Origin: Curvularia clavata
Taxonomy: Eukaryota
Assembly: GCA_023920165.1 (NCBI GenBank)
Contig: CP089280.1
Coordinates: forward strand, 2,666,001 to 2,730,000
Length of the DNA stretch: 64,000 bases
Direction: 5' to 3'
This document shows positions 1-51,456 of the stretch, one piece after another. The position numbers were made by a program, and so were the translations under genes. Position 1 is the first letter of the stretch. Every line of letters starts with the position of its first letter. Below the pieces are notes generated by a model that had not been told where the DNA came from, ran no database searches, and saw only the letters and a program-made list of their open reading frames with translations.

Positions 1-1023
1 GAGTATGTCGTTGGTGTGGGCATTTTGGCGGCAGAGGGCTATGCAGGCGTCACTGCAGGCAGTTAAGCGCTGGGCAAAGGAGGTTTTGCTGATTCCGTCT
101 GGCGTCGTCGCAGAGCCTTTTTGATTCAGCAGAGACATGGACAGAGACAAGCCGGCCCAGGCAAAGACGAGACCAAGAAACTCCCAGCGCAGGTTGTCGC
201 CGGTGAAGAGTGTGCTGAAGGTGCTTGCGTGCATTTCAGGAGGTACTTGTAGCGGCTTTTGCGTGTTTCTGGTGATCTTTTGCGCCAAAGCATGCACGTC
301 TTCACTGGCCAGGTGCTGCAGGGTCTCGACAGCTTTCAGAGGGATTAAAGTCGCCGTAGGGGATACTTGGCTTGTTCGAATGTACGTGTCAACGAGGGAC
401 TGGATGATGGAGACGTGTTGGAGGGTTTTGAGTATCCAGGATCCATGTTGAAGTGACTGGCCCACGCCGGGGTCGTCGGAGCGTGTACCTGCAGAGAGCA
501 TGTCGCCAGCAGGTCCAGGAGGCTGAGAATCCGTGGTAGCGGTCGGTATGTGGTCGACTCGGTCAAAGACGGAATAGTAGCTAGTTGAGCCATAGTAGCC
601 AGAGTCAGCAGCCTTTGGGACACTCTGAACGTTGAGCTCTATGTCACTACTACCGAAGGATGAGGGAGGGCGCGAGCGTATGGTGTTTGAAGCAGCATTG
701 GGGTACATGTGCATCTTGGCTGGTGGGGCCAAGGGTGCGGGCAATGTGAATGAGGCTTGAGTGCTGGGAATTGCCGGCTCGCTCAGTCTGTCGCCGGACA
801 AATCCAGGACTCCGAAGCAAGTTTGATACTGCTGCGTGGACAGCTTGTGACTCGGCCGGACTTGGGGTCCAGGCGAGCGCGTCAAAGGAGCCGCGTGGTA
901 GAAGCATGAGGCGGTGATGCCTCGCGCTTGGCATCTTTGGCAGAATGGGAAGTTGTGGTCGCATTTGACCTTTGCCTTTCGACAGGGCTCGCACGAGCTG
1001 CGGGTGCCGTTGCGACGCAACAT
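1..1023 (-). CDS. Zn(II)2Cys6 fungal transcription factor (3' part runs off the window; internal intron boundaries not resolved)
   Basis: ATG at 1023 gives MLRRNGTRSSCEPCRKAKVKCDHNFPFCQRCQARGITASCFYH (CX2CX6CX6CX2CX8C). Downstream frame (1-480) reads ...STLFTGDNLRWEFLGLVFAWAG..., typical of the fungal TF middle region. Not in the ORF track. Confidence 0.92.
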   Translation of the reverse strand, partial: MLRRNGTRSSCEPCRKAKVKCDHNFPFCQRCQARGITASCFYHAAPLTRSPGPQVRPSHKLSTQQYQTCFGVLDLSGDRLSEPAIPSTQASFTLPAPLAPPAKMHMYPNAASNTIRSRPPSSFGSSDIELNVQSVPKAADSGYYGSTSYYSVFDRVDHIPTATTDSQPPGPAGDMLSAGTRSDDPGVGQSLQHGSWILKTLQHVSIIQSLVDTYIRTSQVSPTATLIPLKAVETLQHLASEDVHALAQKITRNTQKPLQVPPEMHASTFSTLFTGDNLRWEFLGLVFAWAGLSLSMSLLNQKGSATTPDGISKTSFAQRLTACSDACIALCRQNAHTNDIL

Positions 1024-1512
1024 TGCAAGGCTGGGCCACGAGTGTTTGCCGCAGGCTGGAGCGCGAGCAGATGGCGACGCAGACTAAGTGCTGAGGGCAG
1101 ACTGGGTGCTAGTATGTGTACGAAGTCGGTCGAGACGGGCGGAAGCGGGAAGGACGAAAGGCTTAGGGGACATGGCGGCGGGTAGTGCCTCGTTTGCGGA
1201 AATAGAATGCGGGCAGGATTCACAGAGCGGTTGACTGTGGGCAGGCAGCTGCGTAAGCGGGAAACAACAAGAAGCATTAGTTATGTTGGACGTCCGGCTC
1301 ATTCGTACTTAGGCCGCACTCGAGTACCATCCATGCTGATGGTACAACAAAAGGCACCCCTGTAGCCGGCCAAGCATCGCAGTGCACTGTCAGAATAAGG
1401 AAATCTTGTACGGTACTGTGCAGAACTTGGCAGTCGTGCTTAAGCAACGCAAGCATATTGGCCACACGGGGCGTTTCAGCCATCGGCGACGTCACAGCAC
1501 CCGTGCGGCTGA

Positions 1513-1740
1513 TATCGGCCATGGTCAGTGCGTGACCACCCCGCCAAAATTACACAGTAATACCATGTTAGTAATCCATTCTTTTCAACCCTACTTGACT
1601 CTACCACTATAGATCCGATTGTAAGAGGAATTGTAGCAATTCATTTACAAGGCTTTGAATATCAAATCTTCTACAGTAAAGCTGCTAAAAAATTCCGTGT
1701 TAACCGCAGAACTTTTGTGAAGGGCTACGCCCGTGACGCG
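1513..1740 (+). mobile_element. Degenerate 5' end of a pogo/Fot1-like DNA transposon in the TF/ATP-grasp divergent promoter
   Basis: catggtcagtgcgtga...ccaccccgccaaaat matches the terminus at 7359-7412. It is followed by a decayed DPI...YSKAAKKFRVNRRT stretch resembling a pogo N-terminal HTH. Confidence 0.6.
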
Positions 1741-2076
1741 ACCAGAAGGTCATGTGACTGGGGACCACGTGACTTAGGCCTACCTTGGAGCCTTGACCTT
1801 ATCTTCGCCACTTGTGTAGGCAATCTGCAAACACGCTCGTAGTTGGTTAGACTTGGAAGCGGAGACTAGACCAACGCCCACGCCATCCATCGTAAAATCG
1901 GGACACCAAGTCGCTCTTCTCCACCTGCCTAATTGACATGCCGCACTCCGACATGCTCGTCCCAATGGGGCTGCCGCCCGTTGCGCGTTAAGTACAGTAC
2001 CTACGTGCTTCATCTGACTGCTTGCGACATCTGCAATTCCATCTTGCACTACCTCTTGGCCCTTATTGCCAGCAGC

Positions 2077-4155
2077 ATGTTCCAGGAAAGTGCACCTATG
2101 TCTGCGCCTCTCCAGCCAGCACAAGACACGACCAGAATGCCACCACCTTCCCAGAACATCCTGCTGGCCAGTCGCGAGGGTAAGGCGAGCAGCGTCTTTG
2201 ATGTCGGTAGCTGCTGACCGCCACAGGCAACGTCGTGTGCGAGTGGGCATTGGAGACGGCGCATTCACCTCAGCCCGCCTACTATCGCGTGCTCCGGGTG
2301 CACCTGAGCCTCCCCCCCAAGACCGACCAATCTCTTCACGGCCAGACTATTCAAATAGCTCAACTTTCGCCTGGCTTGAACTCTCAGTGTTCCTCTGCCC
2401 TTGACTTTCTCGATTGGGCTGCACGCCTTGTTTGCGCGGGCAGCGGCGGCAGGCATGCGGCCACTGTCCTGATAATCTTACCTGCCCAAGACGGATGCAT
2501 TGTGCGTGCAGACATACTCCGCCAGCGCCTGGCCACCAGCAAGTCGATTGAACGAGTCGAGGAGTTTGTCTCCCTCGGTCAGCATATTACTGCCTTCCAG
2601 GAGAGCCAAGGTGCAAGCACAGACCTGCTCAGCATCCTAAGCTACGCCGCTGGTGCCATTCTAGAACAGCAACATATCCAAAGCTCGCCAAGCGGGAGCC
2701 AAGAGCTGCAGGCCAGGCTTGCTTTCCCATGGATCTGTCAGTTACCTCGCATCTCGCTCATCACTTCCGTTGTAATGCTAACAACTACCAGGTCCTGCTC
2801 CATGGACCCCGAAACGGCTGGTCCTCGTCGGCTGCAGGCCTGAAGTCATCATGGAGAAGTGGCTAACAGCAGCCTTCAACCTTGGCATCCACATCACCAT
2901 CGTCGGACACCATGGCCGATGGCTGCAGCACCAGGGCTTCAGCCAGGCTGTGGAAAAGTATATCGCTATCGACATGGAGCTAGATGGCGGCTTGGCTGAT
3001 CGCATTGCCGACGCCCTCATCAAAGATGGCACCGCCTACGACGGCATCACCACCTTCACCGACATCTATTTCGTTGACGTTGCAAGGGCTGCAATTCGTC
3101 TCAAACTACCCACAGCGCCCTTGTCGGCCGTGGAAACCGCCGTCGACAAGTACAAGACTCGATCTCTGTTCCCAGGAGACTGCCACTCTTTCCAAGTCGG
3201 CAGCTCCGCAGAGCTTCGCCAATCCATATCGGACGGTCTCGTCACAGCATACCCGCTCATTGTCAAGCCCAGCCAGGGCTGGGCCTCGGAGGGTGTCTCC
3301 AAGGTCACCAACGAGGCAGAGCTGTTTGCTGCCGTCGCTGCTCTCGAGCCTGCAAAACACGGCACTCACATTGTCATTGAGACATACCTTGACGGGCCCG
3401 AAGTCGACGCCAATTTTGTGCTGCAAGACGGAAAGATCCTCTTCTACGAGCTCATCGACGACTTTCCCTGCACATCGGAACGAGACGATCTTCCAGGCCA
3501 AGAGAATTTCTTGGAGACTGAGATGCTCTATCCTTCAAACCTGCCACCCAACGAGTCAGACATCATCAGAGACGAGCTGAGGAGTATCCTTGTCAAGCTC
3601 GGATTCCACACTGGCGTCTTCCATCTCGAGGCCCGAATCACCAACTCTTCAATGGCTTATACCTCGGCTGATGGTGTGGACTTGCGGCCTCATGGCAAGC
3701 AGTTGACCAAGACTCCAACCGTCACACTGCTCGAAATCAATCAGCGCGCGCCTGGCATCATGGCTCAGCATATCACGGCATTCAAGAGCGGGGTGGACTG
3801 GACTGCTTTGCATCTGCTCGCAGCTCTGAAAGATACCGTGCGCTTTACTGCCCTAGCGCACGAGTACGCGCCCGAGGCTCAACCCATTACTGCAATCGTC
3901 TTCATCAACACCGAGTTTCCAGGAACTTACAACGGCCAGTGCTTTGCTGTTGATCTGAAGAGGCGGCGCCCTGACCTCGGTGCCATGGTCTACCAAGGTG
4001 GCTCCTACTACCACTATACCAATCCCATTCCAACTGCACCCAACCTGGTTGGCCATTTGATTGTGTCCTCTGAAAAGGGCCGCAAACATATTCTTGCTGC
4101 GGCAAAGGAGATGCGGAGAGAAATCAGGCTTCCTATCACCCCTTTCCGGGCGTAG
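2077..4155 (+). CDS. ATP-grasp domain protein (L-amino-acid/peptide ligase-like), 3 exons
   Basis: Introns ~2180-2226 (gtaagg..ctgac..cag) and ~2737-2791 (gtcagt..gctaac..cag) join ORFs 1933/2235/2851 in frame. Motifs DKYKTR, YPLIVKPSQGWASEGV, IETYLDGPEVDAN, GVFHLEAR, LLEINQRAPG. Confidence 0.9.
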
Positions 4156-4622
4156 CTAGTACTCCAGTGCATAGTAGATGAATTAAAACCAGGGAAAGTC
4201 TGCTCGTTGAACTTGCAACCGATGATGCACATTCCCTTAGAGCTGACATGATCGAAGCCCTACTTGTAAATCACGTGTTGAAATAGCTAATAAAAAGCAG
4301 TGGCTAATGGATTTTAGGTAGTGGAGCTGTCTACGGGGTAAAAAACCGAAAGGGGCGCATTATTATCGGAGTAAGTTGACCGAATTAAGCGACTACTCCG
4401 AAAAAGAGGGTAAGATCTTACTCCATTCGGCACATCGTATCCGACACTCGAACTGAATGACCACAAGCATTGGATGGACGGATAGGCGGTATCAGTCCCG
4501 AATGCTTAGTTCGGAGCCGTATGCTCTGTCGTCTCCTATAGATAACTCGACCTGTCACTTCTCCCACGTTCCTGGGATGATAGCTCCCTGAATATTCCTT
4601 TGAGCCGCATGCACCATTGATC

Positions 4623-6668
4623 ATGGACACGCCCGAGGAGAAGAATTTGTGAGTCTCACGTTTTTGGCGCAAAAGATAGGACACTGACATTACAGGCCCT
4701 CCGAAAATGGAAATTCTGCGTCGATTCCCACAGCCTGCTCTCAGTCTCTCAATGCTGAGACCAATCATTTCGAGGAACCGACTGAAGAAGATCTGAGGAC
4801 ATGCCGACGAGAAGCAGATAAGCTGCCAAAAATGGCCATCCTCGTAGCCGTCATCTCTCTATGCGAGCGCTATGCCTACTATGGCTTCTTGGGCATTCTC
4901 CGTGAGCATCACGACTCATTCAAGAACGCGACTGGCCACTGACCCAAGAGCAGAGAACTACATCCAAAATCGCAGGGACGACCCGTTGCGCCCTGGCGCC
5001 CTGGGACTCGGCCAGGACATTGCTTCCATGATGATCAACTGTTTCACTCTCGTTAGCCAAGTCACGCCTCTCGCGACGGCAGCCATTGCAGATTCATATC
5101 TTGGTCACTACAAGACCCTGCGCACCTGTTTCTGGTTCGTTTCAAAGCTCGCGTGGACTTTGTCCAATACACCAACTTACTTATTTGCAGCCTATACGCC
5201 GTCGGACTTACCATTCTTCTGATAACGTCTCTCCCGCCCTTGCTAAGGCAAGGCGCCGGACTTCCCGGTCTGATTGTCTCCTTGATCATCATCAGTCTTG
5301 GTGTCGGAGGTGTCAAGTCCACGTTGCCGCCATTCCTAGGTCAGTCGAATTGCTACTCCCGCTTGTCGCACATTCTCGTTGCCGCTGCTAAACCATAGCG
5401 ACACTTAGCGGAGCAGTTCCATGCATCCAAGACTAGAATCAGGATCTCCGAGAGAGGAGAACGAGTTATTGTTGACCGTGAAGCGACCATCGAGTATGCT
5501 TTCAATGTATACTATTGGTAAGATTCCACAATCTTGTTGAACTACAGTCCAATCTGATACAGAAAGGTGTGTGAATATCGGTGGCCAAGCAATTATCGCA
5601 TCAACCTTCCTCGAAAAGCACATCGGTTTCTGGGTCGCATACCTGATATGCACTTGCGCCATCTTTCTTGGCCTCATTATGCTCTATCTGGGCCGAAAGC
5701 ATTATGGTGAGACCTCTTCCACCAATCCGTCAAGCGTCGCGAGACGGGGTCTTAACACACTTCAACAGTCAATCTTCCTCCAGACGGCAGCGTTCTCCCA
5801 TCGGCGTGGAAAGTCATCTACATTGCCGTCAGAAACGGGTTCCGACTTGACGCCGCCAGACCTGAAAAGGTGGCCGAGGATACTGGCAAGACAGTAAAGT
5901 GGCGTGACAGCTTCATCGAGGAGATGAAAAAGGCATTAGTCGCCGCGCGCATTGGGTGAGTGGCCGTCCTTGATCATCCCTCCAGAGACGCAACCAGATC
6001 TGACTCCCAATAGCGTCCCATTTGTTGTCTACTGGCTCTGCCAGAACCAACTCACCAGCAACACAATTTCCCAAGCAGCCAACATGGAGACAAGCGGCGT
6101 CCCCAACGACTTGATGCCCGACCTCAACGCCATTACCGTCCTACTATGCCTCCCACTAGCAACGCACGGCCTGTACCCGCTGCTGCGCAAGTTGCGCATC
6201 GGCTTCCCGCCGGTGACGCGCATCGCGCTTGGCTTCCTACTCGAGGCCATGGCCATGGGCTTCGCGGCGGGCGTGCAGGCCTACATCTACGCGTCAGGCC
6301 CGTGCTACAACCGTCCGCGCGCGTGCCCAGCGTCGCCAAACGGCAGCCTGCCCAACCACGTCAGTGTCGCCATGCAAATCCCCATATACGTCTTCGAGGG
6401 CTTCAGCGAGATCTTCTCAAATCCAGCCATGTACGAGTATGCCTTCACCGAGGCGCCTCAAAGCATGAAGGCTGTGCTGCAGGCTTTCTTCGCCCTCACC
6501 GCCGCAGCTGGCTCTGCGCTTGGCCTCGCTCTGACCCCGACGTACAAGGACCCTTACTTGCTGGCTACGTATGCGTCGTTGGCTGGCGCCATGTTTGTCG
6601 GCGCTGTTGGGGTGTATGCGCTTCTACGACCGAGGCGCAAACGCCTCGATAGCGAGGCTGACTCATGA
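4623..6668 (+). CDS. POT/PTR2 family oligopeptide transporter (multi-exon)
   Basis: Exons read EPTEEDLRTCRR..SLCERYAYYG, NYIQN..RPGALGLGQ, IADSYLG, GVGGVKS, NIGG, NMETSGVPNDL, YEYAFTEAPQSMK. Several GT-AG introns. Confidence 0.9.
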
Positions 6669-7358
6669 GTGTGAGCGAGGGGGGCGGGCGCACGGGGAGG
6701 CGCAGGAAGATATTGGACGTCAACCTCAAACAGGGCTTCGACGGTCTTTATGCTATTCATCGCCAGAACTAGTAACCATTGGAGATGAGGATGACGACTA
6801 GCCGCTAGATCTAGCCCTTCCAGATACGCAATTGCCGTGGATAGATTAGAACGCAAAAAGGCATCAAATATCACAAATTGTGATATATGTATAGCTAATC
6901 ATTCGTCTATACTCTCAGAGACTCACTAGCCTGAATAAACACACTATTAGCTACCTCATTTTATCTACTTTTTAGGAACGGCGGGTGGTGTGCGATACCA
7001 AAATCAGATTTTGCGTTTGACACTTCCGCCTCATTTACAAGGGGCCAGAGTGTTCTGAGAAAGCCCCAGATATTGAACTGGCAGAAAGAGGACTATCTTG
7101 TTATCACGTCAACGTGGCAAGCGGCCAATTTAGTATACTAAATGTTCTACGCTGCTAGTTCGGAACACCTCATTACTCAAATTGTTATAGGGAAAGGGCT
7201 GCACTCACTACGGTAGCTGTGGGGTATCCTACAACATCCGGCTATCCGCTTCTCAGTAGCAAGAATAATATACCATGTTTTTATCGCCTTAAACATAAAT
7301 ACATTCGCTTACGTAGTTAACGAGTTCTTCTACTAACGTCTATCGAAAAAAAGAAATA

Positions 7359-9078: not shown

Positions 9079-9505
9079 TGTTAAGAGTATGATCTCGAGT
9101 GGAAGTAATATAAGACTTCTGGTGTCAAGATCTTCTTGGGTTGGTTTTCGCGGATGAAGTAATAGTGTGTTATGAATAAAGGTTCTGCAGTAACTATTGT
9201 ATTGTAGGTACTATACTCGTAACTTAAGTTGAACACATTGAGCCATAAGGGCTCAATGCCTATTCCTATATACTTGCGGTGCTCGCAACCCTTGGTTAGA
9301 GGAGTCTGAGTAACCCTCGGTGGCTTATGTACGAGGGGCATTCCTCTGTGGCTTATGCATGAGGAGTCTGCCAAGACCCTTCTTTGGATATGCGCTACCG
9401 AGGAGGTTATGTAATGCGTGCCCCCGCGTTATATATGGCTGGGTCGACTGGTCGTCAATGCTTCTTAACTTACCCGCCGTGCCTCTTCCTCCCAGGTTCG
9501 TAATA
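9079..9505 (-). repeat. 3' LTR of Gypsy element A
   Basis: Direct repeat of 15409-15835; the differences seen are RIP-type transitions. Confidence 0.95.
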
Positions 9506-9560
9506 CCATCCTCCTCCTCCCTAAGCTTGTTCTCAAGCTTTTTCTTATACCTGGCTAACA

Positions 9561-10073
9561 ATGTCTGCCCCCAGGTCTAAAGAATATTTTCGTCTTGCTC
9601 TTGAGATTCGTCGCAACGGTCTCCCCGCGCCCGTCCCCTGCGATTATTGTTTTGCGAATAACCGTCAGTACGTCGCGATGCCCGAAGTCGATGGCAAGCG
9701 TTTGAAGTGCTCCAAGTGCACTCGTCTAGGTCACCTATGTGTTAACATGTCGTGGGTGTCATTAGATAAGACTCGTGAAGAGTATTAAAAGAAAGTAGAT
9801 AAAGATGAGCAATTATTGGCTCAAGTGATTTCGCGGTTGATGCGAAATAAGAAGATCCTGAAGTAGGCTGAGGAACGTGCTGCGAAGAAGACTATATATT
9901 TGGCGAATTCCTTGCGCGAAGGTGGTGATAATGTGGATACGCAAGAGTCCCTGAACTACCCCGCGGCCGACGCGTTGGTGGGGTTCTCGCCTGTTATGTG
10001 GAGCACTTTGGGTTCTCTAGACGCCCTAGCGTCATCCTCGAATCCTAGCGATACTCCTATTTTTTCTTTCTGA
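9561..10073 (+). pseudogene. Antisense accessory ORF in Gypsy A: Zn2Cys6-like domain plus coiled coil (~170 codons, two RIP-type stops)
   Basis: PCDYCFANNRQ[Y]VAMPEVDGKRLKCSKCTRLGHLC. The frame continues through TAA (9786) and one TAG, both consistent with CAA/CAG>TAR, to TGA at 10071. Confidence 0.75.
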
Positions 10074-13000
10074 TGGTAAGTTCTTTTTATAGTTTTGTAG
10101 TGTTTTTTAATAATTATTAAGATTGTCCTCTAGTTTCTATGTATTTTCGCTGTTATCGTATCCTAACTATTTAACTAGGTATTCGGTTTTATTGCGTGTG
10201 GTTTGGTGTGCTAGAATTTTCTCGACTTCGAATTCGTCTTCTTCTTCTAGTTTGAAATAGAATGTTTTTTGTAATGGCGTTTTGGGGTCTGCGGGTTTTA
10301 ATAACTTAACGTGGAACTTTGGGTGTATCTTTACGTCTGGTGGTAGATCAAGTGTATAGATAACTAGTCCGTTCTAGGCTTTAATTAAAAATGGCCCAAT
10401 ATAAATATTATCTAATCCCTTACTTGGTTGTGTCGTGCAAAGGTTCTTCGTAAGTAGATATACTTTATCCCCCTTTTTTAGCTAAGGTGCTATTTTTCTT
10501 TTCTGATTGACATATAAGATGCTTTGGCGTTGAGCCTTCTCGAGTGATTCTCGTAGTTCTTCGTGTATTTTCTTCATTTCTTCAGCCGTGGTGATGGCTA
10601 CTTCTGTTTTCAAACTTGGTAACGTTCTAGTGAAGAGATTCGGGTGTCTTCTGTGGTTTGCGTAAAATAGTGTTTATTTCGTTGATTCTAATAATTTGTT
10701 GTTGTATGCTAGTTGTGCTATAGGTAGTAATTATACCTAATTATTTTGCTAATGGTTGGCGTATATTCGTAGGTATATTTTTATCGTACGGTTTGTTCTT
10801 TCTGTTTATCCATCGGTTTCGGGGTGGTATACTGTAGATAGCTTTCGCTTAGTACCTATTTCTGCTTAGAGTGTGGTCTAGAAGTTAGATATGAAGAGCT
10901 TATCTCTATCGCTAATAATTGATTTTAGTATTCTATATCGTCTGATAATAACGTCCAGAAAGACATGCGCTAGTTTAACTGCGTTGTAGTCTTTCCTAAA
11001 TTTCTTGAATTCTGCGTATTTCGTGAATCTATCAATAATAACTAGTATCGCGTTATAGATTACACTAGTGACGGGGTCTGTTGATGGTGGTAATCCTATG
11101 ACGAAGTCTATGGAGATGTCTGCCTAAGGGTTGCTTGGCAGTTCTAGTGCTTGCATTTCTCCGTATGGTGCGTGCGTGCTGTGCTTGTTCTTCTGACAGT
11201 ATTCGCATTTAGCGATAAAGGCTGCGACCTTTTCTTTCATTTTGCTAAATTCGAAGTTTCTTTGAATTAGTTCTATTGTTCTAGCGATCCTGGGGTGTCT
11301 ATATACGGGGTCGTCGTGATATTGTTAAATGATTGCTTCCTGCTAGTCTTCGGATATGTTATTTCTAATTATTATAAGTAGGTTAAGCTTGTGTGCTGGG
11401 CTTAGTATTCCGTCTTTATTTATCTAGAGTATCGGTCGGTCTATAATGGTTTTTATCTCTGCGATATCTAGCCTTCTGCTGAGAGCGTCTGCTCTGCTGT
11501 TGTCTTTTCCTAGTGTATATACGATCTTGAATTTGTATTGCCCGAGCAGCTTAGCCTATCAGGTCTGTCGACGGTTGAGAACCTTGGTGGTAGTGAAGTG
11601 GGTTAAATTCTTGTGATCCGTGTATATAGTGAGTTCTAAGTAGCTATGTGCGTAGACTCTCTAGTGTTGTATGCAGGCTACTATAGCTAGTAGTTCTTTG
11701 TTGTGTACGTCGTATCGTTCTTCTGGTCCTGAGAGCTTCCTTAAGTAGTATGCTATCGGGTGCTATTTGCTATTGATGTAGATACTGGCGCATCCTCCTA
11801 GGGCTAGATCCGATGCGTCGGTTTCAAATTTTAGTGGTACTTCTGGAATGAATATCCTAAAGTATGGTAGTGTAGTGCATGCTTTCTTGATTATCTTAAA
11901 GGCGTTATCTGCCTTTTTATCCTAATCCTATAGGATATCTTTTCTTGTAAGCCGTGTTATTGGTGTTACGATCTTTAAGTAATCTTTAATAAATTCTTAG
12001 TTGAAATTCGTAAATTCTAAGAATGACTAAATGTCCGTGACTAACTTTAGTGTCGGCCAATTTTTAATGATCTTAATTTTTTCTTCGCTCATTTGTACTC
12101 TGTTGGTCCCTACTACGTAGCCTAAGAAGTTGACCTTGGTCTTGTGAAATTCACACTTCTTCAGCTTGAGTCGAAGACTGTACTCGTCTAGGGCTTTTAA
12201 CACCTTTCTGACGTGCTTAGTATATTGTTCTTCGTCCTTAGAGTAGATTAGGATGTCATCTAGGTAGGCGATGACGAATATATCTAGATAGGGTCTGAGT
12301 ATGTTATTAATAAGTTCTTAAAACGTGGCTGGGGCGTTTGTTAGCCCAAACAGCATAACTGTGTATTCGTAGTGTCCGTATTGTGTTCGGAAAGCCGTTT
12401 TCCATTCTTCACCTTTCTTAATTCTGATAAGGTGGTATCTATCTCGTAGATCTAATGCTGTAAAGATCTCTACTCGAGATAGTCAATCTCTAAGTTCTCT
12501 GATATTCGGTAGTGGGTATTGATTCTTGACTGTGATATTGTTAAGTTGTCTGTAGTCAACGTATAGTCAATCTGTTCCGTCCTTCTTTGGTACGAATATA
12601 ATAGGGTATCCCGCTAGGGATTTCGATAGTCATATGTAGCCTTTTGCTAGTAACTTGTCTATGTACTCTTGTAGTACTGCAAGTTCTCGTTCCAATAGTT
12701 GGTAAATTAGGCTGAAAGTCGGTTGCTTTCCTTCCTGTAGGACTATTTCATAGTCCTAGAGTTAATGCTTTAATAACGCTTATTCGTCTACTACTTCCTA
12801 AAATAGATACTTAAATGCTCTATATTGTTCAGGGATTTCTAGAGTTGCGCCCTTCTCTTTTCCTCTAGCTTTGTAGTCCGTTGGCCTGGTTTCAGTACCT
12901 ACTAAGTTTGGCTTCCTGCTCTGGGAACTACCTTTTGAGTACGCTCGTTTCTCTGCGTTATTGCACTGTTTAGCAATATTACTCTCATCTACTATCGAAC

Positions 13001-15408: not shown

Positions 15409-15835
15409 TGTTAAGAGTATAATCTCGAGTAGAAGTAATATAAGACTTCTAGTGTTAAGATCTTCTTAGATTAGTTTTCGTAGATAAAGCAATAGTGTGT
15501 TATAAATAAAGGTTCTATAATAACTATTATATTATAGGTACTGTACTCGTAACTTAAGTTGAACACATCGAGCTATAAAGGCTCAATGCCTATTCCTATA
15601 TACTTGCGGTGCTCGCAACCTTTAGTCAGAGGAGTCCGAGTAACCCTTGGTGGCTTATATACGAGGGGCATTCCTCTGTGGCTTATGTACGAGGAGTCTG
15701 CCAAGACCCTTCCTCAGACATGCGCTACTGAGGAGGTCACGTGATGCGTGCCCCTGCGTTATATATGGCTGGGTCGACTGGTCGTCGATGCTTCTTAACT
15801 TACCCGCCGTGCCTCTTCCTCCTAGGTTCGTAACA
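15409..15835 (-). repeat. 5' LTR of Gypsy element A
   Basis: Direct repeat of 9079-9505. Confidence 0.95.
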
Positions 15836-16153: not shown

Positions 16154-18015
16154 ACGTACCTCACGGGTTCGCGGTCCACACGGGTTCGCGGTCCACTTTT
16201 GCCAAGACCCCACCAAAACCACCACATTATGGCCTAATACAGCCCAACTTTGGCCAGTTTAATGCAAAAAAACATAAAATACTATTCAGAGCCTACTTCT
16301 GCTTCATTCTTACACGTTCGCGCGTTATGCCCAGTCCTATTGCACCGTCCACACCGCCGTTGAGACGGTTCACCCACTTCAGCGCGCTTCTGCTTCTTTG
16401 ACTTCTTCCCATCACTACGCACCCCAAAGTCCTGGAGAGCAGTCAAGCGCGCCCCATCTTCAACTGTTAAGGTCCCCTCTGCCTGAACCCGCTTTCTTTT
16501 GTGCGATTTTCGTCGCGTGGCGGCTGCGTTAGCTGCTTCAAGCTCACTAATCCGTTTTTGTGCCAACACTAGCTTATGCGCGATAATAGCTGCCCCCTTT
16601 GAGACCTTCTCAAAAGCCTCCACCATAGACGTTGGTGAGCTGTCTAGGTGCCTCTGAATCCTCTGCTTCACTAGCGTCGATTGCGACCCTATTTCAAGGG
16701 TATTCCTCGGGGTTTGCGACAGCCAGGGCTGGGTATCGACAGGTAGGGGTGATGGAGTGCGCAACTGGACATTAAGGGCGGATATGACCCGTTCTGGGTC
16801 AAATGGGACCAATCCAGCGCCTCGAAACCCTCCTTGGACATTGCTAGCTATAAATGATGCGTCAAAAGCCCGCCTAAAGCAAGGTAGGAACTCTTGTTTG
16901 GTGATGTGGTTGATCTGGGTGCGCATGAGCGATTCGACTTGGCGCCCATAGGCCTGCTTTAAAGGGGCAAAACAGCCCACATCAAGCGGCTGTAAGAGGT
17001 GAGACGAGTGTGGAGGCATGCAAAGAGTAACAATTTTGTTATCTTTGCAGTATTTTTGGAAATCCAGCGAGTTGTGGCTCTCATGGCCGTCAATAAAGAG
17101 TAGACGGTGGGTACCTACCACCTTCTTCTTTGTATGCTCATCAAAGTGCTTTAGCCACGCAAGACCAAGCTCATTGGTCGTCCAGCCGTTCTCAGATACT
17201 CCAATAACCCAGTTCTGGGGTATATCTCCATCTTTGTACCAGCTTGAGAGGTGGTGGCGCGCCTTAAGTATGATGAAGGGCGGAATCGTCCACCCGGTCG
17301 CATTGATGCCCTGGATAACCGTCGCCCACTCTCTATTGCCAGGCTGGATAGTCTTTGGCCGTCCACGTCTCTCTGAAGCTGTAACAACTGCTCCAGGGGT
17401 AATCTGGCCCATCATAAAGCCTGTCTCGTCAAAGTTGTACGTGTCGTCATCTTGGATACCATACTTGGCTTTCATATTGGCTACTAGGCCAAACCAGTCT
17501 TGAATAGCCTTAGGATCCTCACAGAGTGCTCTCTTGTAGTCATACTTGCGATTAAACTTTACTTTAAGCTCAGGGCGGCGCTTAACGAATGTGCTGGGCC
17601 AGTTTTGGCCAACCTGGCCCAAATTGCGCTCAGCGCGCAAGGAATTGGCCATATTAGCCACATCTGCGAGCCTAGGGGGAAATCCACGTGAACCAAGATC
17701 AAGAATATGCTCAACAACCACCTCCTCCTCAAGCTTAGTTAGATTCATTGTTTTAGGCCTGCGATCTGCTTGTGAATCCCGTCCGTCGCGTCTTTGACGT
17801 AGTGTTGTTCGAGAGACGTTATAAAGAGCTGCAGCGCGTCGTTCTGAGAGATTCGCGTCCTGTTTGAGAGCTTGAAGAGCAAGCTGTATTTGACATTCAC
17901 TAGAAGGCTGTAACTGCTGTTGTTGTTGTAACATTTGTGGGTAGTAGGTATTTTGGTGGGGTCTTGGCAAAAGTGGACCGCGAACCCGTGTGGACCGCGA
18001 ACCCGTGAGGTACGT
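16154..18015 (-). mobile_element. Intact pogo/Fot1-family (Tc1-mariner superfamily) DNA transposon
   Basis: TA target duplication at 16152-53 and 18016-17. ~65-bp TIRs (acgtacct...caccaaaa) containing a 17-bp internal direct repeat cacgggttcgcggtcca x2. Confidence 0.97.
16282..17934 (-). CDS. pogo/Fot1 DDE transposase
   Basis: HTH N-terminus, YNFDETGF, FIDGHESH, HLLQPLDVGCF, C-terminal CCHC (CGRCNRTGHNARTC). First ATG is at 17934. Confidence 0.97.
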   Translation of the reverse strand: MLQQQQQLQPSSECQIQLALQALKQDANLSERRAAALYNVSRTTLRQRRDGRDSQADRRPKTMNLTKLEEEVVVEHILDLGSRGFPPRLADVANMANSLRAERNLGQVGQNWPSTFVKRRPELKVKFNRKYDYKRALCEDPKAIQDWFGLVANMKAKYGIQDDDTYNFDETGFMMGQITPGAVVTASERRGRPKTIQPGNREWATVIQGINATGWTIPPFIILKARHHLSSWYKDGDIPQNWVIGVSENGWTTNELGLAWLKHFDEHTKKKVVGTHRLLFIDGHESHNSLDFQKYCKDNKIVTLCMPPHSSHLLQPLDVGCFAPLKQAYGRQVESLMRTQINHITKQEFLPCFRRAFDASFIASNVQGGFRGAGLVPFDPERVISALNVQLRTPSPLPVDTQPWLSQTPRNTLEIGSQSTLVKQRIQRHLDSSPTSMVEAFEKVSKGAAIIAHKLVLAQKRISELEAANAAATRRKSHKRKRVQAEGTLTVEDGARLTALQDFGVRSDGKKSKKQKRAEVGEPSQRRCGRCNRTGHNARTCKNEAEVGSE

Positions 18016-19568
18016 TATACCCGACTCATAACCCAGCCCTAGGGCTCACAAACGGGCTATTAAATAACTTTTGAACTAAGCTAGATGCGGCTTAGCTTTA
18101 TATAACATGATAGAATGCGCTAGCTTAGGGCATTAAAATGACGTCAGAATTACTCGATTTGGACTAGTCTTTGATGAGATATTGATGAAAGAAGAAAAGT
18201 GGGTCAATACCCGTTTACCAGTCTAAGTGCAAGTTTGGGATCAGCTACATGTTAATGCCTGCTATGTCGGGGTCCAGTATTGCAAGGATCGGGTATTTGG
18301 ACTACTCAGCAGCAGATCGCATACGCGCATTGGGCGAACTGGCAATGGGGCTAAAACATAAATATGCGTGGGGGACATGCACAAGGCTGAAACCAGAATG
18401 AGCCCACTGCTAGACTGATGACTGAAATGGAGCATCACATCTGTCTTGCCCTGTACAAATTCAGCGCGAGCTGCATCCTCGGATTCATCCTTCGATGCCA
18501 ACATCTCGCAAGACGAGTCAAGATGCTTTTTGAGAGGATGTCGTGTAGTGTGGACACTGTGAAGATACCTTTCTGCCTTGCGAAGCTTTAGGAGGGGCAC
18601 CCTGGGGTATGGCAAGCAAATGGCTTAATGTGAACACCTGAGTGCTGTAGGTACCTGAATCGTCCTTCGGGTTCGCCGGATCAATCGCGCGTACGCGCCT
18701 CGCTGCTCCGTAGCATACTACTGCATATGGGGAAGTTAGCCAAGCGTTCTAGCCTTGACGCAGGGGTACGGGTCTGGATCGGGTTGCCAAGAGGCCTCGA
18801 TCGGGCTGCCAAGAGCTTCCACGTGCGGCTCGGCAGCGCCGTTCACTAGCTACGAGCGCAAACTCATTAAACCTCCCTCAACCCTGTCAAGCCGCCAGCA
18901 TGATGCCTGATCCGATCTGTTCGTTCAATCCAGGGGCCGTGGAGCTTTGGTTCGGTTCTGAAAAGCTGACTCGACATTGATGGTGTTTTTGTTGATGGAC
19001 CCTGTATCCTCTGAGGCCCACTGAAACTGACGATACACGGCTTGGTCTTGCTCGTCGTCTTGAAGAGTAAGCAAAACGTGATGCGTAGAATTCTGGGGTT
19101 AAGAACGATAAGAAACTCATCAAACACTCTCAGGACGGCAGCGCAATCTTCGAAGACAGGAAATCTCTCCCGAGATGTTTGCACAGCTGCAACTACCGTC
19201 AGCCGATGCCTGATTAGACTTCGCGCGTAACAGCCACCGAACTATATTGCTATACTCAACGTCTGCCTGTGACCAACAGTCAGCTCGCCCCAATGGCGCC
19301 TCTTATTGAGTCTGGGTACTCCAACTCTAACCGAGCTTGAAAGCTCCAGCACGTAGTTCTAGAAACACCAAGGCAGAAGTACAAAATGCACGTCGCCCGT
19401 CCTTACATCTCACCACCCAGCTCGTCTTATAGCTTTTCCTAACGTTGTGTTACTTTGCTTTGGTGTATTTCACACCGTCCAACTTGCAGCTATCGTGCTG
19501 CTATCATTCCTTTTACTCTCTTTTCCCTCTTTTTACTGTATTTTTCGATCCTAATTCTAATACTAACC

Positions 19569-30030: not shown

Positions 30031-31341
30031 GAAGCCTTCTGGGATTTGAGAGGAGCAATACTTGCAGTATGAACAGAGATTGGCTAAAAGAGTCGATGAA
30101 AGCTTGTATCTCGCTTCCTTTTACTTCAGAGACTATGGGGCTTCCAACTAGTTTAGATTTTGACCTTTTGCTAAGCTTCTCTCTTATCTGCCAGCCTCGA
30201 TTTAGTGAACAGTAGTCCTGGTAGTACTTGGCAAATAGATTGATTAGGCTTAGCTCAGTTGCGCCTTTCAAGCTCTTTCTCCCGAAAACCAGATCTACTT
30301 GAGTGCAATACTTCTTTAGAACAACTTTCATCATACTTCCTCAAGTTATGAATTCATTCATTTATCCACCTGGGTGATGCTGCTGGAGGTCTCGCAACAA
30401 CTTCATCGTTCCCTGACGTCGTCACAACGTTTTCTTGACCTCATGAGCTTGGAGTTTGCAATCTAGAATACACATCAGTTGTTTTGAGATCTGGGAAAAG
30501 CAGGATTGACTAACTTGAAGCCGTGCTTTCGACCCCGCCGATGCCCAGGTAAGTCGCATTGCAATGACTTGCGCGTACACCTAACGCACCGCGTGTCCTG
30601 CGCCACCTTGTAGCACTTCATCTTAACTTTGCGGCATTGTAGACAAGCATGTGGTCTTAAAGCAAACAGATCAGTGAACGCGCAACTGCAGAGTCGATCT
30701 GGGGCTGGCTCACACTGCTCTCAAAGATTCGGAACCGAGCGCCTCATGGGCCTCCGTCATCCTGGATATGGGTATCGGACATTGAGGTCAATCTATGCCC
30801 GGATGAATATCGCAGTAGCATGTCAGTAGTATGCTGTCGAACGGGTAAGGTGTCTTATCTGTGTCACTTTTCCACGCTAACCACTTTGGCGCCTGTCCTT
30901 TCGCACAGTTGACACTTGCAGATTGCTTTCCACATGCAGCAACCAAGCACTTATCACATTCTCCACCCATACGTTCTCTAGTCATGAATGCTATATGGCG
31001 CATTACGCAAACGCATGTCCCGACAGTCGGCAGCCACCCTGGTATGAAGCTCTTACAGTAATAGGAACCTCTCGGAAAACGTTGACCCCGCACCACTCTT
31101 CCCGAAGCAATTCAACACAATCGCCAAGAGAATGAACCAGCTTTCTTTGGTAAAGTTGGTGCAATCTCGGCCCACTTCGTTATCATTTGCGCGTATCGCC
31201 GGTGTTCTACTATAGATTGAGACACCGGTGGCTGGCACGTGCGCTCCTCCATCAATAGTCCTCATTGCTCTACGAAAGGGTAAAGCAGTCAAGCAAGTCG
31301 GCACCAGATCTACACGAACCTGAATACTACGCATCTAAAAC

Positions 31342-39901: not shown

Positions 39902-40703
39902 TGTTAGACTGTTAGTGGCGTGAAGGTACAGCACGAGATAGATGAGAGAGAACTATGCTTTAACAGCCATGTATTCACGAGACGAATCGCTATCGAGCAC
40001 CTCTAGCGATCGTGGAGGCTTTATAGCCTTAGGTAAGCCCTAGCTGACTAACTAGCGTGAAGAAGGAGGGAATTGGACCAACATGTCCCAATTTGGACCA
40101 GGTCCTGACAATACCTCCCTTCTTAGGGTGCAGCTGTCCCAGCTGCGCAACTTATCATGCTTGCCGCCCAGTTTGAGCGATTACTGGGTGATGCCGCCGT
40201 GTGGGTTGGAGGGTGTATTTTACTTGCTCACCGCCCCAGGGCTATGACGTCATAATAGCGGAGTTTTGCGCTGCTGCCTAGCCGACTGCCCCACTTTGGG
40301 CCAACCCGGCCCATCGGGGTACTCCTGGGCAGCGCCAAGAGTCACGTGACGCGCTAATTTAGTGCGGATCCAGGGATACAATAGCCAGTTTTTGACTAAG
40401 CCCAGTACACCCCACAGTCCACCAACCCCACTTTGGTAAGTAGACTCCCATTTTGTGGGTCTTCTCAGTTTGGGCCCGACACCTTCCACCCACGGTCTGT
40501 TTGCAACAGTTTGGCCCAATTTGGGCCAGTTTGCAGTCGACCTTGGTTTTGTTGCCTTTTTCTGAGGTTCTTCCCCTGGACTTGGAGTTTTCTGCTGACT
40601 GTTCTTTTTAGGCTGTTTCCTCCCATACGATCCATTTCGCGACAGATTCGACCGATTCGTCCCAAACACCCCCAAATTGGGGCCTTCAAGACCCACTTGA
40701 ACC

Positions 40704-41769
40704 ATGACGAACGCACTTGGATCCGTCAACCGCAGTACGGTGTCAAACCTGTTCGTACGCAAGGGCCAGAGGTCTTACTACGCTTGTGTGTGCTGTCTGA
40801 ACGCCTTCAGGGATAATGAGCCCGTTACTTTTGGCAGAGCGGGTTGCGTTATGTTGGACATCGACAATCCTGAGGTAGCTGAGGCTTGGTCTGGCTACAA
40901 GGTTGAACCGGAGTCTGGCGGTATGCCTAGGCAGGTGATGAAGTGTCTTCGCTGCTCTTACATCAACCGTGTCTGTTTTGCGGTAAGTTGCCCTGTTTTG
41001 CTCTGATTTGGTCCAATTTGGAGCTAAATGAGTGGTTAGGTGCCTCCTCCCGACAAGTTCTCCCCCGACTGGGTGAGACTTGGCCAGCTCATTGGGAAGG
41101 TTGAGGATGCCTTCCATGCCATTGACAAAGATATCCCCGAGGGTGCCAATGAGGCTGAAGTTCGTGCTGAGCGCAGGGAAATGTACGAGGTGGCCGTTAC
41201 TAGGCTTAGTATGTTCAGCAAGCCTATTGTTGAGTCACTCAAGAAGTAAGTGATCCAATTTTCCTAAATCTGGCCCAAATTGGACTAATTTGTGTAGGTT
41301 TGAGCCTCATGCTACTCATCTGTCTCTTTCCTCTGGTGCCATCGAGGAGGAAGATGATCCCCGCTCTGGTGTGAAGACTTCTGCCCTTGGCCGCTCCAAG
41401 AAGGATGAAGAGGTCAAGAGGAAGGCTCATGAGATCGAGGTGGAAACTTTGGTCGAGGCAAGGGTCAAGAAGTCCAAGTATGGCTCTGGTGGGCGCAAGA
41501 AGGAGGTTTGTGATCCTTTTCCCCCCTATTTACGCCAAATTGCCCCAATTTGGACTAACTTGGTTCTTTAGGTCAAGGTTGCCGAGGATGTCACTGATGA
41601 GCTTCAGAAGCGCATCAATGACATTGATGAAGAGATTTTGCAAAAAATGTCTGAGAAGGAGGGGGCCAAGGGTCAAGCCAAGAGGAAGATCACCAATGAC
41701 ATCAAGAACTTGGAAAAAGCCAAGGCAAGGCTTAACAAGGAGTACGAGGCCGCAGTTGCCGGTGATTAA
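40704..41769 (+). CDS. Antisense, 4-exon accessory gene inside Gypsy B (296 aa): expanded Zn2Cys6-like Cys pattern plus Lys/Glu-rich coiled coil
   Basis: Exons 40704-40982, 41040-41245, 41298-41505 and 41572-41769 join in frame (891 nt, no internal stop). GT..CTAA..AG introns. CX2C-X16-C-X32-CX2C-X6-C. Confidence 0.85.
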
Positions 41770-42057
41770 GGGTGGTTGGGTCTAGTTTTGTCCGTTTTGG
41801 CCCAAATTGGGTCAGTATGGGCTATGGTGGTTTTCTTCCCTTTCATATGAGATACCCAGGGCATTAGGATGGAGGTGATAATTGAAATTCTCTTTTCTTT
41901 ACTTTTCCATTCCTTGGTTTTTGTTGTGCAATGTCAGTTCAACATGGACCAATTTGGGCCAGGTTGCCCTAATCAGCTTATGCCGTTAAACACCTATAAA
42001 ACCCTTTGGGGAAAAAAGTAGGTGAAGGTACATGTGCTAATTTGGCTCCTATTGGCC

Positions 42058-45000
42058 CTATTTGGCCCGTTTTGGCCCGCGTCTGCGTCGAGGGACCTGA
42101 TTTGATTTGTTCCAGAACTCTTGAAGCGTTTTCTGGGTAACATTGGCGGCTGGCTCCCATGTGTTTTCAGAGTCGGGGTATCCAGTCCATTTCACTAAGT
42201 ATTCCCACTGATCGTCCTTGTTCTTCCTATGTCCCACTATTTTGTCCACGAGGTAGACATCGTCGCCTGTCTCGCCTAGTTCGTGTTGTGTTGGGACTTC
42301 AGGATGTGGTATATCACCTGGGGGGTGATACTGCTCTAGTAAGGATGCATGGAACACTGGGTGTACGTTTTTTAGGCCAGGCATATCTACTTTAAATGCT
42401 GATGGGCCGATTTGCTCAGTTATTGTGCCTGGGCCAACGTATTTCCAGTCGATCTTCTTCTTTGGTCGCAGGGATTTAATATGCTTATTAGATAGCAGTA
42501 CTTTATCCCCTACCTTAAAAGGAATGGGTTGTCTTTTCTTATCTGCGTGCCGTTTTTGGTACTCTTGCGCTTTTAGAATATTGTTCTTGCACTCTTGTTG
42601 TATTTCGATTATTCTTGAGGCAGTACTTGCCGCTAGGGGGTTTTCGCCCCCAGTTTGGGCGTCTTTGGGCCATTCTGCGCCTCTTGGGTGTATGCCGTTG
42701 CATGCTTGGAAGGGGGTGACCTTGGTAGTCGAATGTACACTGTCATTGTACGCGTATTCCCCTACTGAGATCCATAATGCCCAGTCGTCCTGCTCTAGGG
42801 AACAGTAGCAGCGGAGGTACTGTTCTAGAGTCTGATTTTGGCGTTCAGTCTGGCCATCTGTTTGTGGGTGGTATGCCGAAGTAAGTACACGTTTCGAGTT
42901 AAGGTAGTGAAGAAAGGTCTTCCAATGGGTGGAGTTCATTAAAGGGCCTCTATCTGATATGATTCGGCGTGGTACGCCATGGAGACGGATTACTTCGCGC
43001 AACCATGCCTGAGCTAGGTCTACTCCGTCCCAATTGGACCGTGCTGGCACGTAATGGGCCATTTTGGTCAGTCTGTCGACTATCACGAGGATTGCGTCGT
43101 ATACTACGCCTTGCAGTTTGCTTGGTGGCAATTCAGTTATAAAGTCCATTGTTACTTCCTCCCAGGCTCTATTGGGTGGTGGTAATGGTGCAAGGGGCCC
43201 GTATGGCAGGTGCCGTTTCGGGGTAGATTTTTGACAGATAAGGCATGATTTGCAGTAGTCTTCCACGTCTTTCCTCATGCCAGCCCACTTGTAGTGGCGC
43301 GTTAGTTTCTCTAATGTGCGTCTTGCGCCAAAATGTCCAGAAAGCGGGTCGTCGTGACCTTGTTTTAATGCTGCTGCTTTTTCCTGTGCCGTCTTGGGCA
43401 CGGTTGGGCCAGAGTGGCCCTGTTTGAGCCTTTGTGGACTTGGTTTGGCCACGTCGTCTTCTTCTGAGCTACATGAGTCCGAAGTGTATTCGTCCGTCTC
43501 TGAGTCGGCCTCTTGAGCCAATGCTGCATGCCTCTGGTCTTCATGTTGCTTCGCTGCTGTATTCTGCCGTCCTTGTGATCGTGTGGTGGTAGCTGCAGCT
43601 ATAGCAGTCCCTTCGGCATTGAATTTGAGCAGATGGCGTAGCGATGGCACATATGCGCTATTATTCTTCTGCTTTGGCTCTTGGGCGGCTTTTATGTAGT
43701 CGGGTCTGCGCGATGGGCCGTCGGCGGGGTTTGTTTTCCCAGGTTGGTGTACAATTGTGAAATCAAAACCTGATAGGGCTAAGTAAGACCGTACCTGGCG
43801 GTGATTCAGTGTTTTGGTTTCCATGAACCACTTCAGGTTTCGATGGTCAGTAATTAGATCAAAGTGTATCCCATCAAGATATCTTCGCCAGTGTTGGAGA
43901 CTAGCGACGATAGCTAGTAGCTCTTGGTCATGCGTGTCATAGTTGTACTCCGCGGCGATTAATTTGCGCGAGTAGAAGTCTACGGGTCTCCAGCAAGCCT
44001 CTTTGGGCACGTACTGGCTTAGGATGCCAGCAATCGCTCCTCCCGACGCATCGACCTGTACTCTAGTCTGATTGTCTGGATTAAAGTGGGTTAGGATAGG
44101 TACTGCCGTAAAGGAGTTTTTTAGCGTCTTAAACGCGCTCTTGGCGTTTTCGTCTAGAATTAGCAGTACGCTTTCCTCTTTTCGCTGAGCTTTGCCCCCT
44201 TTGGCGGCGTTCGGCTCCTTTTTCAGTAACTCAGTTAAAGGCAGTGCGATTCTGGAGAAGTTAGCAATGAATCGACGATAGTAGTTCATGAAGCCTAGAA
44301 ACACGCGGACATCGCGCACTGTACGCGGTTCTGGCCATTCTTGGGCCGTTTTGGCCCGATCTGGGTCGATACTTATACCCTCGGGGCTAACTGTGTAGCC
44401 AAGGAACTCAGTGTGTTGGGTGTGCCATTCACACTTCGAAGTCTTCAAATACAGCTTGGCTTCGCGCAATCTGTTTAAGACTTCGCGCACGTGTCTCTCG
44501 TGCTCCTCTTCTGTGTTGGAGAACACCAGGATATCGTCCAAATACACAATACAACTCACATCTACCAATCCTGCAAGGATATGGTGTATGTACGCCTGAA
44601 ATTGTGCAGGAGCGTTTGTAAGGCCAAAAGGCATCACAGTATACTCGAAATGGCCGTATCTGGTGCGGAAGGCTGTCTTCCACTCGTCTCCCTCCTTAAT
44701 CCTCACCCTATGATATGCTTCTCGGACGTCTAGCTTGGTATAGAATTTTGCCTCAGCCAATCTATCCAAGGACTCCGTAATCAAGGGTAAAGGGTGACGG
44801 TTTTTGAGCGTTATGTTGTTTAGACCTCTATAGTCCACACATAACCTCATCGTGCCGTCTTTCTTCTTCGCGAAGAGTATTGGTGCGCCTGCTGGCGACT
44901 TCGAATGTCTAATCCACCCTCTCGCGAGATACTCACGCAAGTAATCCCGGAGTAGCGCTAACTCGCTCTTCGAGAGCCCATATAGCGGCTGATGTGGTGG

Positions 45001-46991: not shown

Positions 46992-47232
46992 CTCGTAGGT
47001 GTACTTGAGGAGAGCGATTCGAATGTTAGACTGTTAGTGGCGTGAAGGTACAGCACGAGATAGATGAGAGAGAACTATGCTTTAACAGCCATGTATTCAC
47101 GAGACGAATCGCTATCGAGCACCTCTAGCGATCGTGGAGGCTTTATAGCCTTAGGTAAGCCCTAGCTGACTAACTAGCGTGAAGAAGGAGGGAATTGGAC
47201 CGGCATGTCCCAATTTGGACCAGGTCCTGACA

Positions 47233-47315: not shown

Positions 47316-47344
47316 TAGACTGGTAAATGGGTATGGGGCACCCG

Positions 47345-47575
47345 GCTCGGGTTGGGGTAGGGCTTGGGGCTATAGAGACTCGGGCTGGGGTAGGGCTGGG
47401 GCTGCTAAGAGTCGGGCTGGGGTAGGGCTGGGGCTGCTAAGAGTCGGGCTGGGGTAGGGCTAGGGCTGCTAAGAGTCGGGCTGGGGCAGGGCTGGGTTGC
47501 TTGGCACTTGGGCTGGGGTAGGGCTGGGTTACTAAAGAGTTAGGTAGGGGTAGGGCTGGGTATAGCCTGCCCAGC
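47345..47575 (+). repeat. hAT left subterminal G-rich tandem repeats (~32-bp unit gggctggggtagggctggggctgctaagagtc)
   Basis: Visible tandem array; related repeats occur at 63710-63970. Confidence 0.9.
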
Positions 47576-51428: not shown

Positions 51429-51456
51429 GGAGTTGGCTGGTGGATTTGACTGGCTA

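Follow-up and report, generated by a model that had tools for sequence, protein, structure and literature searches.

What is the damaged reading frame that lies antisense in the interval from the pol gene to the 3' LTR of a Gypsy element at positions 9561–10073? An earlier reading, made from sequence alone, took it for a gene inactivated by RIP-type changes whose product carried a Zn2Cys6 binuclear cluster and a coiled coil. The same reading proposed that such genes recur in fungal chromoviruses. Throughout, the window is the whole stretch of DNA analysed (64,000 nt). The answer is built up from the frame itself, its intact relatives in other genomes, their position and selection within the element, and models of the protein.

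A degraded antisense gene in element A

The Gypsy element, element A, runs on the minus strand, and the frame at 9561–10073 is thus antisense to it, between pol and the 3' LTR. The features of this part of the window are listed here in order of position.

9079–9505, minus strand: 3' LTR of element A, 427 bp, with TG..CA ends that carry RIP-type changes; direct repeat with 15409–15835
9506–9522, minus strand: putative polypurine tract, a purine run touching the edge of the 3' LTR and assigned from that position
9561–10073, plus strand: antisense accessory gene in degraded form, with 170 codons before a final TGA at 10071–10073, from the translation
9639–9740, plus strand: six-cysteine cluster CX2CX6(C>Y)X12CX2CX6C, from the translation and a six-frame pattern scan
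9756–9920, plus strand: long helix, residues 66–120, the predicted antiparallel dimer interface, from the AF2 model of a relative and a homodimer model
10032–10373, minus strand: C-terminal end of pol, with an SH3_Tf2-1 remnant and a chromodomain (Pfam Chromo, 41.2 bits)
10878–12482, minus strand: remains of integrase and reverse transcriptase (Integrase_H2C2, 46.2 bits; RVT_1, 99.1 bits)
15409–15835, minus strand: 5' LTR of element A, 427 bp; direct repeat with 9079–9505

The LTR pair is about 90% alike (a 300-nt core aligns at 90%) and, together with the RVT_1, Integrase_H2C2 and Chromo matches on one strand, identifies element A as a chromovirus. The translation, the LTR pair and these Pfam domains on the minus strand confirm the placement of the six-cysteine frame beside the 3' LTR and polypurine tract. 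Pol ends at or below 10034, with a TGA stop at 10032–10034 on the minus strand, and the antisense frame shares at least its last 42 nt with the pol end on the other strand. Position 10034 is A in the window and G in nearly all other genomic copies found in two DNA runs, so the TGA arose by a C>T change private to this copy, and pol formerly extended further into the antisense frame.

The composition of element A (TpA/ApT 1.33 and (CpA+TpG)/(ApC+GpT) 0.82 as RIP-like indices) differs from that of the genic stretch 1–7000, where the same indices are 0.70 and 1.34. Four of 22 public runs were compared with element A. Contigs of two of them (X1 and X2) match the element in thousands of pieces at 80–99% likeness, and the differences are mostly transitions; in X1 they comprise 724 G>A, 417 C>T, 216 A>G and 207 T>C. 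Two presumed RNA runs (X17 and X19) place 3 and 9 small contig pieces on element A. One contig (518–565 nt) touches 9766–9835 and 10177–10249 with differing letters between, and indicates neither strand nor expression.

The translation of the antisense frame reads M...CDYCFANNRQYVAMPEVDGKRLKCSKCTRLGHLC... and starts at an ATG at 9561, which lies 56 bp internal to the edge of the 3' LTR (9505). It is interrupted by in-frame stops at 9786–9788 (TAA) and 9864–9866 (TAG), and Cys>Tyr changes stand at 9669–9671 (TAC), 9897–9899 (TAT) and 9957–9959 (TAC). Scanned in six frames for the six-cysteine pattern, with one Tyr allowed, the whole window gave two printed sites, this frame and a host-type cluster at 30556–30645, the canonical cluster of the gene at 1–1083 having been left out of the output by a re-parse of the ligands. 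With two printed places in the entire window, the pattern at 9561–10073 is not attributable to chance.

A conserved protein family

With X in place of its stops, the frame retrieves 128 related proteins (E<=0.01); the closest is 84% identical, and all lengths lie between 93 and 298 aa. Most of them are intact proteins of 157–181 aa, and many lie on contigs of 6–8 kb. The named relatives come from Exserohilum, Pyrenophora, Periconia, Macroventuria, Boeremia, Sporormia, Cercospora and Hortaea, all of which we take to be genera of Dothideomycetes. A profile built from 78 intact members matches 456 representatives of 50% identity clusters at E<=0.001 (1.84 billion searched), 207 of them at E<=1e-10. 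Among the matches listed (150 of the 456), lengths run from 55 to 407 aa without long fused forms, which indicates a stand-alone protein rather than a fragment of a long transcription factor. The nearest clusters in the ESM Atlas are Ascomycota proteins without Pfam assignment, one of them auto-named as a Zn(2)-C6 protein. These matches point to a real and conserved family that has no Pfam model.

Alignment to the intact relatives shows what the window copy has lost. All six cluster cysteines are invariant in the 78 intact relatives, and residue 37, which is Tyr (TAC) in the window copy, is Cys in every one of them. The sequence-only reading had named, as grounds for giving up its claim, a Tyr at this third ligand position or a missing open frame in undamaged copies. 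The relatives have Cys37 and an open frame, so that objection fails, at least across other genomes. The same reading had restored the cluster by a single Cys>Tyr reversion, and was right for residue 37, but it missed codons 113 (TAT) and 133 (TAC), where Tyr likewise replaces a near-invariant Cys. It had also derived both stops from glutamine codons (CAR>TAR). This derivation is well backed for the TAG at residue 102, where 74 of the 78 relatives have Gln, but less so for the TAA at residue 76, where 34 relatives have Gln, 15 Glu and 8 Lys; a CAA>TAA origin is plausible there. The changes in the window copy are G>A or C>T of the TpG/CpA kind, the ancestry of codon 76 being uncertain. The frame is, as had been proposed, a RIP-type-damaged copy of a genuine gene. 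On its sequence, the window copy is evidently dead, inactivated by RIP-type changes, and would do nothing.

Position in the element and upstream signals

A scan of metagenome contigs gave 78 loci (L001–L078), and pol was sought in them by tblastn, the query being the intact pol from element B, a second chromovirus of the window. In 70 of the 78 loci a Gypsy pol follows the ORF directly on the opposite strand, tail to tail; the other 8 have short flanks. The ends of ORF and pol overlap by 8–95 nt in most loci. LTR pairs in the expected geometry, spanning 5.2–7.0 kb, are present at 13 loci; in five of these a start codon is called, and its distance from the LTR is 51–285 bp. The antisense ORF is intact in 46 of the 78 loci. 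It is the third gene of a large Dothideomycete Gypsy/chromovirus clade, carried on the strand opposite gag-pol, beginning about 50–80 bp inside the 3' LTR and ending within the last codons of pol. The proposed recurrence of an antisense module in many Gypsy/chromovirus elements is borne out by the tail-to-tail arrangement and the loci with LTR pairs.

Some loci (L003, L005, L007, L008, L010, L014, L020, L021 and L023) are contigs of 6.1–6.8 kb without an LTR pair, and in several, such as L003, L010, L020 and L021, pol is divided over the contig ends. These contigs look like assemblies collapsed to a single LTR.

The sequence between the LTR and the ATG holds two recurrent words. Of 38 loci, 28 have a TATA-like word at −60 to −31 relative to the ATG. 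Counts in six of the other 30-nt bins are 1–11 loci, and the bin at −270 to −241 reaches 17, a peak that may be the LTR's own TATA. The proximal word is a candidate promoter of the antisense gene. It would leave a very short leader before the ATG, and it could instead have a role on the sense strand near the polypurine tract. The second word, CCCCGC/GCGGGG, is found no more than 60 nt ahead of the ATG at 13 of the 38 loci, which belong to one subfamily; the other bins have it at 0–3 loci. In L009, L010 and L014, both of its orientations are present and form a small inverted repeat.

Predicted structure and dimer

The relative P0002, whose residue numbering is by alignment common to the window copy, was modelled with AF2 at a mean pLDDT of 73.8. 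The model has helices at residues 7–19, 28–32, 51–56 and 66–120. Region 27–60 is compact and contains two short helices, each of which follows a CxxC. The helix at 66–120 spans 55 residues with block pLDDT of 78–94, and this predicted helix agrees with the coiled coil that the sequence-only reading had placed after the cluster. The C-terminus forms two short helices of low confidence.

Foldseek finds no match to the P0002 model at E<=0.001. Zn2Cys6 domains nevertheless make up 13 of the best 20 of its 22 rows, at E 2–10 for what is a small domain, and include Put3, AlcR, Pho7, Ppr1, Hap1, Leu3 and Gal4. VIA gives Z scores of 2.1–2.6, with Pho7 at Z 2.5 and 2.1 Å over 36 residues. These structural scores are weak because the six-cysteine domain is too small for strong ones.

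A homodimer model, built without an alignment and with a zinc ion present, reaches an ipSAE of 0.52, against 0.03 for the best of three controls. In a calibration performed without zinc, the ipSAE mark was reached by 21 of 30 same-chain-pair proteins and by 0 of 23 proteins solved as single chains. At least 56% of the contacts are common to the homodimer runs, and the pLDDT of the partner is at least 69. The interface is formed by helix 63–110, with contacts between residues 100 and 75, 96 and 79, and 86 and 86. This pattern of contacts makes the modelled dimer antiparallel, an arrangement that places the two clusters at opposite ends of a rod. In the model, acidic residues 79–83 would lie opposite the partner's basic residues 92–98, which suits the antiparallel orientation.

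Relation to Gal4-type Zn2Cys6 proteins

A true Gal4-type Zn2Cys6 factor would dimerise on CGG half-sites in the LTR or near its own promoter and so switch transcription of the element on or off. The sequence-only reading had described an exact binuclear cluster, and as far as spacing goes it was correct. The pattern CX2CX6CX8-15CX2CX6C is found in 78 of 78 intact relatives, the middle spacer being at least 13 in 3 of them; the spacing of Zn_clus is CX2CX6CX5-12CX2CX6-8C. Matches to Pfam Zn_clus are weak. Of 30 members scanned, 13 have one at E<=1, with 0.0017 as the lowest E, but all are below threshold: P0002 scores 10.6 bits and P0190 10.1 bits against the PF00172 gathering cut-off of 21 bits, whereas the host gene at 1–1083 on the minus strand, a positive control, scores 34.1 bits. 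The window copy has no Zn_clus match even at E<=10. A profile search of PDB sequences returned no Zn2Cys6 chain at E<=10. Aligned by hhalign with the window's canonical cluster, the family has its cysteines in register at a probability of 1.4%.

The loop between the second and third cysteines differs as well. In Gal4, this loop bears Lys17 and Lys18, the base-contacting lysines for CGG. The host cluster at 1–1083 has the loop RKAKVK, in which four of six residues are Lys or Arg. The family's loop, with the consensus F-x-x-G/N-x-x, contains on average 0.6 Lys or Arg in six positions and none in 41 of the 78 relatives, so that the DNA-contact loop of the described cluster is not basic.

A Gal4-type factor is therefore an unlikely identity for this protein, despite the conserved spacing, the Zn2Cys6 domains that head the Foldseek and VIA results, the weak Zn_clus matches, the two members named 'Zn(2)-C6 fungal-type domain' proteins in UniRef, and the concentration of CCCCGC/GCGGGG close to the ATG. 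Every Foldseek E value is 2 or worse, and the failed sequence tests, together with the antiparallel dimer and its clusters at opposite ends, argue against a Gal4-style reading of paired CGG sites. Since the spacing agrees but the sequence tests fail, the protein is called Zn2Cys6-like here and is not filed as a member of that family.

Selection on the antisense frame

Among linked transposon copies, dN/dS blends selection on active lineages with neutral decay, and in this sense the NG86 estimate for the ORF has a median of 0.24 over 133 pairs, 96% of which lie below 0.5. In the part of the ORF outside the pol overlap the median is 0.17. Four of the other frames give values of 0.93–1.78, and one antisense frame gives 0.27, which is taken to be a wobble-sharing effect, as that frame is not open. 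Summed over the 46 intact loci, the other five frames contain 112–372 stops each and the antisense ORF frame alone is open, a count that is partly circular because these loci were picked for openness in that frame. The identity of the ORF follows that of pol (Spearman 0.84, a value reached in 0 of 999 permutations), and mean pairwise identity is 0.43 for the ORF versus 0.47 for the pol segment. Such co-variation is expected for linked genes and fits long joint descent, not repeated capture. The gene encodes a stand-alone protein of about 165–175 aa that is under purifying selection and inherited with pol.

These figures also bear on whether the transcript, and not the protein, is what matters. 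Convergent transcription over the 3' end of pol could yield dsRNA that tunes silencing of the element, with the frame being secondary. A dN/dS of 0.17 in the ORF frame against about 1 in four others, the invariant cysteines, and a protein identity on a par with that of the pol segment cannot be accounted for in this way, and we regard it as very improbable as the main explanation. The tail-to-tail overlap of ORF and pol in most loci would nonetheless permit it, and the available portions of two papers contain supporting precedents, dsRNA-mediated regulation having been proposed for antisense extra ORFs (PMC7264820) and Botrytis Gypsy elements being strong sources of small RNA (PMC8365987). An antisense RNA role may coexist with the protein. 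Lastly, a chance open frame or annotation artefact with an accidental cysteine pattern, as the two stops of the window copy and its want of a Zn_clus match at E<=10 might suggest, is refuted by the hundreds of relatives, the fixed position, the purifying selection and the confident core fold.

Element B and other features of the window

The window contains a second chromovirus.

39902–47232: element B, a chromovirus with 209-bp LTRs that are 99% alike

Element B has open gag (424 codons) and pol (1246 codons) genes with RVT_1, RNase H, integrase, SH3_Tf2-1 and Chromo domains, and is apparently young and intact. The sequence-only reading had counted element A as a second Gypsy family with an antisense Zn2Cys6 ORF in the same position as in element B. 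This claim is not confirmed in the window, as element B is without an antisense six-cysteine gene. The six-frame scan printed no six-cysteine pattern in its 1.95-kb interval between pol and LTR, and the family HMM, run on the six-frame window, gives a domain i-E of 1.2 at best at element B. None of its six plus-strand ORFs matches Zn_clus, and five of the six have no Pfam match at E<=1; the ORF at 41572–41769 has only sub-threshold matches of helical or coiled-coil type. No homologue was found for the cysteine-bearing ORF at 40704–41006 among proteins close to it in length, and hhalign of 40701–41006 against the family gives a probability of 5%.

Other parts of the window are repetitive or transposon-derived. 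The stretch 40110–42058, from the pol stop of element B to its 3' LTR, holds about ten copies of a near-palindromic motif of 17–23 nt on both strands, mostly about 255 nt apart, and has more the look of a tandem array in decay than of a gene. About 100 nt beyond the 5' LTR of element B, at 47333–47556, a G-rich unit of 32 nt is repeated in tandem, in six overlapping copies of 64 nt. Two Copia-type copies lie head to tail on the minus strand at 49635–58773, with identical 644-codon ORFs at 49635–51569 and 54574–56508; the part upstream of these is complete in one copy (754 codons) but disrupted in the second. An intact 587-codon transposase of pogo/Tc5 type, with DDE_1 (110.8 bits), HTH_psq and HTH_Tnp_Tc5 matches and a CCHC-like knuckle at its end, is encoded at 16282–18045 on the minus strand. 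Host-type Zn2Cys6 clusters with basic Cys2-Cys3 loops are present at 1–1083 and 30556–30645, both on the minus strand.

A proposed role for the antisense protein

The frame at 9561–10073 is a degraded copy of an antisense gene of Dothideomycete Gypsy/chromoviruses, and that gene probably encodes an accessory, dimeric zinc-cluster-like factor. The intact protein is predicted to consist of an N-terminal helix, a compact six-cysteine domain whose shape resembles a Zn2Cys6 binuclear cluster, a helix of some 55 residues through which two chains would join as an antiparallel homodimer, and a conserved short motif at the C-terminus. It would be expressed as an element-encoded accessory factor from a promoter of its own adjoining the polypurine tract. 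By analogy with the antisense accessory proteins of complex retroviruses, the dimer may act as a zinc-stabilised adaptor or regulator that serves the life cycle of the element. Its binding target might be nucleic acid, contacted in a non-Gal4 manner, or a protein of the element or host.

A more specific role can be imagined for this accessory factor and is put forward tentatively, as possible but doubtful. The protein could be a self-encoded regulator of the chromovirus, produced from a small promoter in the stretch that runs from the polypurine tract to the ATG. Its antiparallel, rod-shaped zinc-cluster dimer would bridge two DNA or chromatin sites far from each other, or link RNA or protein of the element with a host factor, and thereby control transcription from the LTR or escape from genome defence. 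If so, the six-cysteine cluster would be used otherwise than for Gal4-type reading of CGG.

Comparison with known systems

The family resembles Gal4-type Zn2Cys6 domains (PF00172; Gal4 1d66, Ppr1 1pyi, Put3 1zme, Hap1 1hwt, Pho7 6e33) in its cysteine spacing, the two short helices after the CxxC motifs and the dimerising helix that follows the cluster, and these domains are its best, though weak, structural matches. Unlike Gal4-type proteins, its members fall below the Pfam threshold, have no basic DNA-contact loop and are predicted to form an antiparallel rather than a parallel dimer. They are also only about 170 aa long, without an activation or middle-homology region, and are encoded by a transposon. 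Fungal proteomes list intact copies under host 'Zn(2)-C6 domain' or hypothetical proteins, yet they are transposon genes, a point that matters for annotation.

The closest fungal precedent in layout is found in the Boty elements of Botrytis and Sclerotinia, which carry an extra gene, brtn, antisense between pol and the 3' LTR, according to the available portions of PMC8365987, PMC4227169 and PMC7264820. These trace brtn to a 2011 article by Zhao et al. (Virology 417:248). Compared by the descriptions in those portions only, both systems are fungal Ty3/Gypsy elements with a chromodomain and an antisense gene in the same interval. A cysteine cluster in brtn is not mentioned in the available portions of the three papers (PMC8365987, PMC4227169, PMC7264820). 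There is no Botrytis or Sclerotinia among the named relatives of the present family. The hosts differ accordingly in class: those of brtn are Leotiomycetes, whereas the named members of the present family are all Dothideomycetes.

In plants, antisense ORFs between pol and the 3' LTR, termed aORF-3R, occur in Grande, RIRE2, Retand and PvRetro13 (PMC7264820, in part), and extra ORFs (eORFs) are described for the Tat lineage (PMC4408406, in part). As presented in the available text of PMC7264820, the aORF-3R share the place and orientation of the present gene, are found in most copies, are conserved like other element proteins and are suspected of a regulatory role. The corresponding observations for the present family are the tail-to-tail position in 70 of 78 loci, an intact ORF in 46 of 78, and an identity of 0.43 against 0.47 for pol. 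The plant ORFs differ in being longer and in having other domains or none (PMD, Tr28, SMC-like), and plant and Boty antisense ORFs alike are stated to have no clear similarity to other proteins (same portions of PMC7264820). The present family, unlike aORF-3R, has a recognisable six-cysteine cluster.

The literature searched, a body of work from which most subscription journals were absent, yielded no account of an antisense zinc-cluster gene in a fungal Gypsy element. The layout itself, an extra ORF set antisense in the interval from pol to the 3' LTR, has been described before, and the six-cysteine, coiled-coil-type family is a further version of it. Antisense extra genes of LTR retrotransposons are known without any having an assigned function, to judge from the available text of PMC7264820. 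With its 456 clusters, clear selection, zinc-cluster-like core and predicted dimer, this large family offers a tractable entry to the roles of such antisense genes.

A more distant parallel is provided by retroviruses. HBZ of HTLV-1 is an antisense-encoded bZIP protein that is transcribed from the 3' LTR. Like HBZ, and like ASP of HIV-1, the present gene lies on the minus strand of its element beside the 3' LTR, and its product is a small protein that has a dimerising helix and is suspected of a regulatory role. The likeness is one of analogy: there is no relation in sequence or fold, and the candidate promoter here lies inside the LTR boundary. Should the regulator outlined above prove real, the family would give HBZ and similar antisense proteins of retroviruses a counterpart in fungi.
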